From Dehalococcoidia bacterium (GTDB lineage Bacteria > Chloroflexota > Dehalococcoidia > SM23-28-2 > RBG-16-64-32): 64,000 bases of DNA. The notes beneath the pieces are model-generated. The model saw only the letters and a list, made by a program, of their open reading frames with translations. It ran no database searches and was not told the DNA's origin. Shown one piece after another: positions 54,372-54,942 of this stretch. Where the stretch lies: the NCBI GenBank assembly GCA_040882565.1, contig JBBEAZ010000024.1:105662-169661 (forward strand). The letters are read 5' to 3'. Each line of letters begins with the position of its first letter. Position 1 is the first letter of the stretch. The position numbers and the translations under genes were made by a program.

Positions 54372-54395
54372 GTTATGCCTCCTTAGCCCCCGTCC

Positions 54396-54480
54396 CCGGC
54401 CAGAGTAGCCAGTAGCAAGGAGCCAGTAGCCAGTAGTTCATCCCGGCCAGAGTAGCCATTAGCCGGTGGGTAGTTCATCC
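54396..54480. repeat. two tandem imperfect ~40-48 bp direct repeats (CCGGCCAGAGTAGCCAGTAG...GTTCATCC) downstream of the four-helix-bundle gene
   Basis: Unit 1 is 54396-54443 and unit 2 is 54444-54480. AGTAGCAAGG is inverted relative to 54902-54912. Confidence 0.7.
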
Positions 54481-54942
54481 TTCGTGTTCTTCGCTCGCGT
54501 AGTACGGCTCATGTCCATCGGAAATGCCGTTCCGGTTCCAGTCCGGTTGCTGCTTCGCCTTGTTGCGCAGTGCTTTGATGAGGCCCGAGAGAGTCGCAGC
54601 TGCCTCAGACCGAATGGGCTCAATCGCTGCGATGTCCGCCTCGGTCAGGATCTCTACATCCAGCATGAATTCGAGCAGATACTCCACCTCACTGATCGAA
54701 GTGCTCGCAGTTTCCAGGAAACGCAGGAAATCTCGAGTCGTACCACGCCCGTGACCTTCTACGATGTTCAGAGGAGCGGAAACTGCCGCTCTCGACAGCT
54801 GACTGGCCAACCAACCATCGGTTTTGGCGACCTTTTTACTGAGCGCGTAGGCTCTTTTCGCCAGGAGGTCTGCCTTGCGAAATGCGATGACCCGCCGGTA
54901 GCCCTTGCTACTTGCTCCTTGCTCCTTGCTCCTCGTCGTCAT
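54475..54942 (-). CDS. four-helix-bundle protein (TIGR02436 / 23S-rRNA-intervening-sequence-type protein) inserted between atpD and atpG
   Basis: IAFRKADLLAKRAYALSKKV ... LASQLSRAAVSAPLNIVEGHGRGTTRDFLRFLETASTSISEVEYLLEFMLD matches the remembered family pattern (..FP..E.Y.L.SQLRRAA.SI..NIAEG..R....DF..FL.IA.GS..E....L). Confidence 0.75.
   Translation of the reverse strand: MTTRSKEQGASSKGYRRVIAFRKADLLAKRAYALSKKVAKTDGWLASQLSRAAVSAPLNIVEGHGRGTTRDFLRFLETASTSISEVEYLLEFMLDVEILTEADIAAIEPIRSEAAATLSGLIKALRNKAKQQPDWNRNGISDGHEPYYASEEHEG
54902..54932. repeat. TTGCTCC-rich tandem/inverted repeat at the 5' end of the four-helix-bundle gene
   Basis: CCCTTGCTACTTGCTCCTTGCTCCTTGCTCC. Its reverse complement, GGAGCAAGGAGCAAGGAGCAAGTAGCAAGGG, pairs with AGTAGCAAGGAGCC at 54411-54424. 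Confidence 0.65.

Follow-up and report, generated by a model that had tools for sequence, protein, structure and literature searches.

An IVS-type four-helix-bundle element between inverted heptamer arrays in the ATP synthase operon of a Dehalococcoidia bacterium

The stretch of Dehalococcoidia DNA analysed here (the window; 64,000 nucleotides, contig JBBEAZ010000024.1, positions 105,662 to 169,661) carries an F1Fo ATP-synthase operon on its minus strand, at 52.4-60.5 kb. The gene order is atpB, atpE, atpF, atpH, an open reading frame (ORF) of the DinB_2 family, atpA, atpG, an ORF of 155 aa, atpD and atpC, followed by murA and mreB, and the nearest relatives of the atp genes are found in metagenome-assembled genomes (MAGs) of Dehalococcoidia and Chloroflexota. 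The subject of this report is the 155-aa ORF together with the short tandem repeats that bound it; as read from the sequence, this insert is positioned precisely between the stop codon of atpG and the ribosome-binding site of atpD. The original prediction held that the ORF encodes a four-helix-bundle (4HB) protein of TIGR02436 type, a family best known from the intervening sequences (IVSs) of 23S rRNA, and that it looks like a mobile or selfish insertion tolerated in an essential operon. The observation is confirmed here and the interpretation is supported, with reservations on mobility and on tolerance that are given where the readings are weighed.

The gene, its repeats and its place in the operon

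The 155-aa protein is a member of the TIGR02436/PF05635 four-helix-bundle family. It matches the profile hidden Markov models (HMMs) PF05635 (23S_rRNA_IVP; E=2.8e-21, 76.2 bits against a curated cut-off of 33.8) and TIGR02436 (E=8.3e-21, 74.3 bits against a curated cut-off of 24), and a profile of the protein and its relatives matches the crystallised proteins 2GSC (E=4e-19) and 2RLD. An NCBI record holds an identical protein, named 'four helix bundle protein', from a Dehalococcoidia MAG. The AlphaFold2 model, which is that of a monomer, has a predicted local distance difference test score (pLDDT) of 86.6 and helices at residues 19-38, 43-66, 69-95 and 101-130; residues 1-14, which the 5' heptamer array encodes, and the tail 131-155 are mostly of low confidence, with pLDDT below 50 at 1-9 and 140-146. 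In Foldseek searches the model superposed on 2GSC with a template-modelling (TM) score of 0.90 and a root-mean-square deviation of 1.3 A, on 2RLD with a TM score of 0.90, and on chains of Avd, the cofactor of diversity-generating retroelements (DGRs) both free (4DWL) and in complex with reverse transcriptase and RNA (8UB7), with TM scores of 0.75-0.85 (about 0.85 for 4DWL) and a probability of 1.00 at 9-12% identity. Pairs among the relatives give dN/dS values of 0.09-0.24, that is, purifying selection on the 4HB protein; the window copy itself gives no value, its synonymous sites being saturated against all available relatives.

Table 1. Features of the insert and of the adjoining host genes, in window coordinates
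Feature	Position	Strand	Basis or remark
atpG (ATP synthase gamma)	54939-55811	-	PF00231, E=2.8e-94; host gene upstream of the insert
ATGA, atpG stop codon overlapping the 4HB start codon	54939-54942	-	translational coupling (putative); 5' boundary of the insert
4HB gene (four-helix-bundle; S23p / 23S_rRNA_IVP / TIGR02436), 155 aa	54475-54942	-	HMMs above cut-off
5' arm: heptamer array CCTTGCT x4.4 (sense units GGAGCAA / GTAGCAA)	54903-54933	-	Tandem Repeats Finder (TRF), period 7, 91% matches
Predicted long-range RNA stem enclosing the ORF, 54907-54930 x 54407-54430	54407-54930	-	minimum free energy (MFE) and centroid folds
3' end region, degenerate copy on the proximal side, with the ORF stop codon	54442-54480	-	tandem duplicate of 54395-54443
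3' arm: inverted heptamer array AGTAGCC x4.7 (sense units GGCTACT / TGCTCCT)	54404-54436	-	TRF, period 7
atpD Shine-Dalgarno (SD) sequence AAGGAGG	54378-54384	-	kept just past the 3' boundary of the insert, after the distal array
atpD (ATP synthase beta)	52941-54371	-	host gene downstream of the insert

The insert is bounded on both sides by heptamer arrays (Table 1). What had been described as a TTGCTCC-rich repeat at the 5' end of the ORF proved to be a tandem array that reads (GGAGCAA)3-GTAGCAA on the coding strand and forms codons 4-13; it is rich in purines, with AAGGAG motifs, and its unit fits G-R-R-N-C-A-R. The array on the 3' side is rich in pyrimidines and lies 39-71 nt past the 4HB stop codon. 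Over 31 nt (54403-54433 and 54904-54934) the two arms are 84% complementary, in line with the earlier statement that AGTAGCAAGG occurs in inverted orientation on both sides. The two tandem repeats of about 40 bp reported for the 3' side were found at ~54395-54443 and 54442-54480, the distal one holding the AGTAGCC array, and both units contain CCCGGCCAGAGTAGCCA (95%; spacing 47 nt) and GTAGTTCATCC (100%; spacing 37 nt). Two relatives, L084 and L169, have one copy of this 3' end region, beginning TGATGAACTACTGG.

When positions 54372-54960 of the minus strand are folded as RNA, the arms are predicted to pair into the long stem that had been thought possible, in the MFE and the centroid structures alike. 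The predicted stem has 21 bp with 3 interruptions and pair probabilities of 0.59-0.91, and the energy of the arm duplex is -42.8 kcal/mol. The alignment score of the window arm pair is 16, against a 99th percentile of 14 for flank pairs taken across different 4HB loci, and most relatives share this layout.

The ends of the insert are closely fitted to the host genes. In relatives as in the window, the 4HB start codon shares bases with the stop codon before it or directly adjoins it (ATGA, TAATG, GTGA or TGATG), and the 3' end of some relatives' 4HB genes overlaps the start of the next gene. A scan for promoters and terminators found no promoter-like or terminator-like site within the insert, and no rRNA or other Rfam family was matched in 52400-58000; the element sits between atpG and atpD, not in a 23S helix. 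The window holds a single 4HB copy, no others being matched by an HMM built from 16 relatives.

Recurrence among relatives and in other bacteria

We compared 80 atp operons from reference genomes, plus metagenomic relatives. In the closest reference genome (L005, AtpG 83% identical) the spacer between atpG and atpD is 16 nt long, TAG-GAGGCAACA-ATG, with neither heptamers nor other repeats, and the gap is 53 nt in L003 and 33 nt in L002. The 4HB gene is found at atpG|atpD only in the window, the P0005 contig, L165-L168 and L085-L088, at atpD|atpC only in L169 and L170, and at both junctions in L081-L084, so that genomes with 78-90% identity in their atp genes differ in which of the two sites is occupied. 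L170, for instance, is empty at atpG|atpD (8-nt spacer) where L084 is filled (550-nt insert), their atpG being 88% and their atpD 90% identical in DNA. Some relatives have the gene at one or the other of these junctions, some at both and some at neither, so its presence is polymorphic, as the original prediction had expected, and heptamers are absent from the empty sites of L005 and L170. The ORF is inherited together with its arms as a single unit, which either occupies an exact intergenic position or is missing from it.

In L081 and L084, the copies at atpD|atpC are ~55% identical to the window protein and those at atpG|atpD 36-37%, and copies from different atp junctions intermix in a neighbour-joining tree computed without support values. 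In more distant Chloroflexota (L089, L090, L092 and L030) 4HB genes lie at atpH|atpA, and an unrelated organism (L124, AtpG 34% identical) has copies at atpA|atpG and atpG|atpD. Targeting of atpG|atpD alone was ruled out, as elements occur at four atp junctions and in many other operons.

The survey of this architecture covered 84 metagenomic 4HB genes, with 30-68% identity to the window query. The 5' flank of each gene was locally aligned to the reverse complement of its 3' flank, and flanks from different loci served as control; this cross-locus control replaced RNAduplex z-scores, which extended over whole flanks and were poorly calibrated. The median alignment score was 14.5 for own flanks and 7 for cross-locus flanks, 66 of the 84 own pairs lay above the cross-locus 95th percentile, and 42 lay above the 99th. 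The two arms match within one element, and the arm sequence varies between elements (CAGGGTG/CACCCTA, AGGAAAT/AATTCCT, GAGACAA/CTTGTCT, GCAACAA/TTGTTGC, GGGTCAA/TGACCC and GGAACAG/GTTCC are examples). Among 53 strong arm pairs, period 7 was best in both arms for 46, and G-R-R-N-C-A-R fits 30 of these 46 unit consensuses, the GGAGCAA of the window included. Over 294 kb of contigs, 106 period-7 arrays lay within ~130 nt of 4HB gene ends, a zone that makes up 12% of the sequence, and 40 lay elsewhere, an enrichment of ~19-fold; periods 6, 9 and 12 were not enriched near the gene ends in the same contigs. The arms are also polar: in 52 of 54 elements purines predominate on the coding strand of the 5' arm (p=1.6e-13), and SD-like tetramers are present in 23 of the 54 5' arms and in none of the 3' arms. 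This polarity points to a constraint on one strand, acting through the transcript or through translation. Arm type tracks protein lineage: GGAACAR arms are found in L081a, L084a, L087, L088 and L095, which, all except L095, cluster in the tree. Outside atp operons the neighbours are housekeeping genes, mostly co-oriented with the 4HB gene and often coding for partners in one complex (carA|carB, succinyl-CoA ligase, nuo).

The arrangement recurs on plasmids of cultured cyanobacteria. On a Nostoc edaphicum plasmid, between nrdB and nrdA, (GGGAGTA/G)8 and (TCCCTAC)5 arrays are complementary at 97% over 34 nt, and a stem is predicted for this element (fold z=-7.25). A Geminocystis plasmid has AAGGGAA on one side and TTCCCTT on the other of a 4HB gene between parA and parB, and on a Calothrix plasmid the gene is flanked by TTAGCTG and AAAGCTA. 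On a Pseudanabaena plasmid the arrays around the 4HB gene, between cas6 and cas4, are mostly direct and not inverted. In that Pseudanabaena galeata sequence (L172, 1350-1990), ~15 AAAAGCT units lie upstream and ~10 AAAAGCC units downstream of the gene in direct orientation, with a short inverted AGCTTTT array farther upstream, an exception to the simple inverted layout. In the Nostoc edaphicum plasmid pNe_5 (L171, nrdB|nrdA) and the plasmid of Calothrix PCC 7716 (L173, hlyD-like|ABC transporter) the 4HB gene is opposite to the orientation of the operon.

Arrays of the heptamer GGGAATC are over-represented in Xanthomonas, where 70-75 convergent pairs are included, and similar arrays occur in Nostoc (Rehm et al. 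2015, PMC4692102); the 4HB family is not mentioned in that paper. Its supplementary file 2 lists, as repeat #15 (Xanthomonas campestris 622956-622983), a four-unit GGGAATC-type array over the start codon of the 4HB gene XCC0516, 6 nt from bccP, with no inverted GGGAATC partner listed. In a full-text literature search, which covered few subscription journals, we found no paper that treats 4HB genes of protein-coding operons as units resembling IVSs, and none that links 4HB genes outside rRNA to inverted heptamer arrays.

Other sequences were observed at the same atp junctions. The atpG|atpD spacer of L004 (4597-4725) holds an ORF-less hairpin of ~130 nt, with CGCAGAT-type units against ATCTGCG units (MFE -51.9 kcal/mol, z=-2.9), possibly the relic of a 4HB element, or else a relation of these elements that has no ORF. 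In L001 (AtpG 79% identical) the spacer is 235 nt long (6870-7105), without 4HB gene or heptamer arrays. Many unrelated guest genes, read by eye only, are found at these junctions in Dehalococcoidia, among them an apparent HAD-type hydrolase, a conserved protein of ~90 aa, and inserts of 2-3 kb. The atpG|atpD gap is 727-792 nt in L024, L038, L039, L045 and L078, and ~310 nt in L028, L029, L058, L059 and L068; other guests lie at atpA|atpG (L037, L046, L051), atpH|atpA (L035, L079) and atpD|atpC (L020, L080). The Dehalococcoidia atp operon seems unusually permissive to interruption. The ORF between atpH and atpA in the window (163 aa, DinB_2 / MDMPI_N family, 57375-57866 on the minus strand, with an ATGA stop/start overlap) is kept in the close clade (L001, L003, L004, L005, L026, L081, L084, L085, L170) and missing from the atp operons of more distant Dehalococcoidia. 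Elsewhere in the window, and unrelated to the 4HB element, are three period-36 tandem repeats (9044-9155, 21950-22024 and 31883-31965; sub-periods 12, 9 and 18 were also detected) and a (GA)15 tract at 33765-33794.

Proposed mechanism and rival explanations

The window instance is an IVS-type element in an mRNA operon instead of rRNA. We consider it probable that this 4HB element of ~550 nt is co-transcribed with its host genes and is a substrate of RNase III, cleavage being predicted because of the analogy with the 23S IVSs of Coxiella and Leptospira. Apparently without a promoter or terminator of its own, the element would be transcribed within the atp mRNA, and the 4HB protein would be translated by coupling to the termination of atpG. 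At times when ribosomes are not melting the stem, the purine-rich 5' arm, which comprises the start region and SD-like motifs, would pair with the pyrimidine-rich 3' arm in a duplex of ~21-24 bp, and this pairing would hide the 4HB start region. RNase III would then cut the duplex and excise the 4HB segment, splitting the operon transcript into an upstream piece that ends in atpG (atpB...atpG) and a downstream atpD-atpC piece. The 4HB protein most plausibly binds its own repeat stem, a guess made because its homologue Avd binds an RNA stem-loop. Over evolution, to judge from the comparison of operons, the element would move or duplicate between operon junctions.

Several results weigh against this reading. 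The 589-nt region, taken whole, is no more stable in folding than its shuffles (z=0.07), so that the closing stem alone is informative. A clear excess of G.U pairs is normal for selected RNA helices, and the arm mismatches have no excess of sense-strand G.U over A.C (80 versus 90, p=0.49). The RNase III gene rnc was not recognised in the window, either in a motif scan or among the best 25 of the 52 Pfam families matched by its ORFs, and no recombinase, reverse transcriptase (RT) or transposase linked to the element was found among the same 25. No target-site duplication is visible where filled and empty sites are compared (window versus L005; L084 versus L170), the boundaries being placeable no more exactly than to within a few nt. 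The metagenome loci, moreover, were picked by similarity to an atp-borne query and are biased toward atp operons. Mobile-element genes are nearly absent beside ~80 related loci, with one integrase match.

With no recombinase, RT or transposase linked to the element and no target-site duplication seen, the word 'mobile' is left without a mechanism. Of the earlier description as a mobile or selfish insertion that is tolerated, 'mobile' draws on presence/absence and on changes of position, no mechanism of mobility having been seen, and 'tolerated' possibly understates the case, given purifying selection on the protein and recurrence at four Chloroflexota atp junctions.

The even balance of G.U and A.C mismatches also favours the alternative that survives best, in which the arms act at the level of DNA, as the ends of a mobile or recombining element (sites of a trans-acting recombinase, a hairpin or cruciform, or inversion of the ORF), their complementarity being kept by template switching or conversion and the RNA stem being a by-product. 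The arms are gained and lost together with the ORF, and both the tandem duplication of the 3' end in the window and the variation of array copy number, among relatives and among Coxiella strains, are signs of replication slippage. In two of the four cyanobacterial plasmid cases (L171 and L173) the ORF is opposite to its host operon, so that inversion between the arms is possible. However, the heptamer differs from element to element, which makes a single sequence-specific recombinase unlikely, and neither a linked transposase or integrase nor a target-site duplication was seen. A symmetric DNA palindrome, furthermore, does not need the polarity that places the purine-rich arm upstream in nearly all elements, and RNase III cutting of the homologous Coxiella stem is an experimental fact. 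We regard this explanation, taken by itself, as rather unlikely. The absence of a G.U excess nevertheless suggests that the match between the arms may be maintained in the DNA, by slippage and conversion, and that the RNA duplex may follow from it, and we hold the RNA and DNA levels to be complementary, not exclusive.

It is less likely still that the insert is a domesticated operon module, in which the expression of ATP-synthase subunits required in unequal amounts would be uncoupled, either by the stem with its cleavage or by the 4HB protein. 4HB genes are found at atpH|atpA, atpA|atpG, atpG|atpD (many loci) and atpD|atpC, and at each of these junctions (delta|alpha, alpha|gamma, gamma|beta, beta|epsilon) a subunit present in 1 copy adjoins one present in 3 copies; but this coincidence carries no weight, because all junctions of atpH-A-G-D-C are 1:3 boundaries. 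The clustering of the atp-borne copies in the neighbour-joining tree and the two copies in the atp operon of the distant L124 would fit such a module, but the tree has no support values and the loci were chosen by their similarity to an atp-borne query. The tight stop/start overlaps at both ends, the low dN/dS values and the residence elsewhere between partner genes (carA|carB, succinyl-CoA ligase, nuo, nrdB|nrdA, parA|parB, cas6|cas4) also speak for a role in the operon; yet the closest relatives (L005, L003 and L002) lack the element, and other Dehalococcoidia have unrelated genes, an apparent HAD hydrolase or the ~90-aa protein, at the junction.

The position of the 5' array within codons 4-13 raises a further alternative, that of a phase-variable gene: 7 not being a multiple of 3, slippage in the array would toggle the 4HB ORF on and off. 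Heptamer number does differ between Coxiella strains, and arrays overlap or abut the start codons in relatives and in XCC0516. But this explanation, which we think very improbable, leaves the inverted partner array and the complementarity of the arms unexplained; at many loci a considerable distance separates the 5' array from the conserved core downstream of it, and the array may precede the start codon as well, and the close homologues are all in frame. That the insert is an ordinary accessory gene beside chance low-complexity sequence is hardly credible: the unremarkable folding energy of the whole region would agree with it, but the comparison with cross-locus flanks contradicts it, as do the enrichment of period 7, the arm polarity and the recurrence seen in cyanobacteria and in Xanthomonas.

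The broader pattern, that is, inverted heptamer arrays as a hallmark of S23p/TIGR02436 genes across phyla and residence between partner genes, may be worth more than the window instance. S23p/TIGR02436 proteins are very common, and crystal structures have been available since 2006; we know of no function for them, and to our knowledge the over-representation of heptamer repeats in several phyla has no explanation. A link between 4HB elements and this long-noted heptamer excess is probable. If 4HB genes and heptamer arrays are parts of one operon-dwelling element that makes an RNase III-type duplex, both puzzles become testable, and a new way of splitting or modulating essential operons (atp, car, suc, nuo, nrd) after transcription would be at hand. 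A bolder proposal, possible but to be held tentatively, is that '4HB gene + inverted heptamer arrays' is a widespread, unrecognised class of selfish operon-dwelling elements, of which the ORF-bearing 23S IVSs would be the special case that landed in rRNA. Such a class would explain a good part of the heptamer excess in cyanobacteria, Xanthomonas and others, and an Avd-like pentamer would bind its own heptamer stem, either controlling RNase III excision or recruiting in trans an RT that would copy the RNA, once excised, into further intergenic sites.

Comparison with known systems

ORF-bearing IVSs have been reported for Leptospira and Brucella; helix 45 of 23S rRNA is the site of the Coxiella IVS, and helix 25 is a second known site. 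The closest known system is that of Coxiella, where an S23p ORF lies in a stem-loop whose closing stem, 28 bp long, is made of terminal inverted repeats, with tandem GACAGAT heptamers on its 5' side whose number varies by strain, and where mapping by RACE (rapid amplification of cDNA ends) placed the RNase III cuts midway along the stem (Warrier et al. 2016, PMC4990558). The same paper cites like processing for the IVSs of Leptospira and Salmonella, as well as the old idea that the ORF formerly had a role in mobility, and the Coxiella IVS is termed a selfish element in the literature (PMC4990558). The window element shares with it the ORF family, complementary sequences at its ends that pair, in the window by prediction, into a stem of ~20-30 bp, and tandem heptamers in the 5' arm, so that the link to the 23S IVSs is closer than the original prediction had noted. 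The two differ in host, which is 23S rRNA with mapped RNase III cuts in Coxiella and a protein-coding operon with predicted cleavage in the window. They also differ in the state of the gene: the Coxiella ORF is decaying and apparently untranslated, whereas the window ORF is intact, putatively coupled to atpG, and its relatives' copies are under purifying selection.

MITEs (miniature inverted-repeat transposable elements) and elements of the repetitive extragenic palindrome (REP) type are, like the window element, small, dispersed, intergenic, bounded by inverted repeats and without a transposase of their own. In contrast to these, the window element has a conserved protein gene, its arms are copy-specific tandem heptamers, and no target-site duplication was seen. 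As in transposable elements generally, it is present or absent at orthologous sites; the 4HB gene is its sole ORF, with no linked transposase or recombinase.

The tandem heptanucleotides of Calothrix PCC 7601 are known as short tandemly repeated repetitive (STRR) sequences. The window arrays (x4.4 and x4.7) are STRR-like, being at least 2 copies of tandem 7-nt units in intergenic positions or at gene ends. They resemble the heptamer simple sequence repeats (SSRs) of several bacteria (three heptanucleotides in Calothrix PCC 7601, GGGGA(C/T)T in Nostoc, GGGAATC in Xanthomonas, TAACTGA in Beggiatoaceae) in that tandem 7-nt units lie between co-oriented genes. In the papers on these SSRs, by contrast, the repeats are treated as G-quadruplex or regulatory sequences, unconnected to 4HB genes, and many of the arrays enclose no ORF.

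Among solved structures, the closest to the window protein are XCC0516 (2GSC) and BT_0352 (2RLD), of the 'S23 ribosomal protein family'. Like the window 4HB gene, XCC0516 has its heptamer array over the start codon; it directly follows bccP, with the difference that no inverted partner is listed for it. A more distant likeness is that to Avd (4DWL; RT-Avd-RNA complexes 8UB7/8UBE), which shares the four-helix-bundle fold with a TM score of about 0.82-0.85, forms a pentameric basic barrel and differs by its low identity to the window protein (~9-10%). The window 4HB gene, moreover, adjoins atpG and atpD and has no RT, template repeat or variable repeat beside it, and no RT family is among the best 25 of the 52 Pfam families matched by the window ORFs. 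In the ribonucleoprotein of the Bordetella phage DGR, seen by cryo-EM (electron cryomicroscopy), the Avd pentamer binds an RNA stem-loop beside a duplex of sequences up- and downstream of the template (bioRxiv 10.1101/2023.10.23.563531). If 4HB genes and heptamer arrays do make up one operon-dwelling element with an RNA duplex of its own, such elements would be a plausible evolutionary source for this DGR cofactor.

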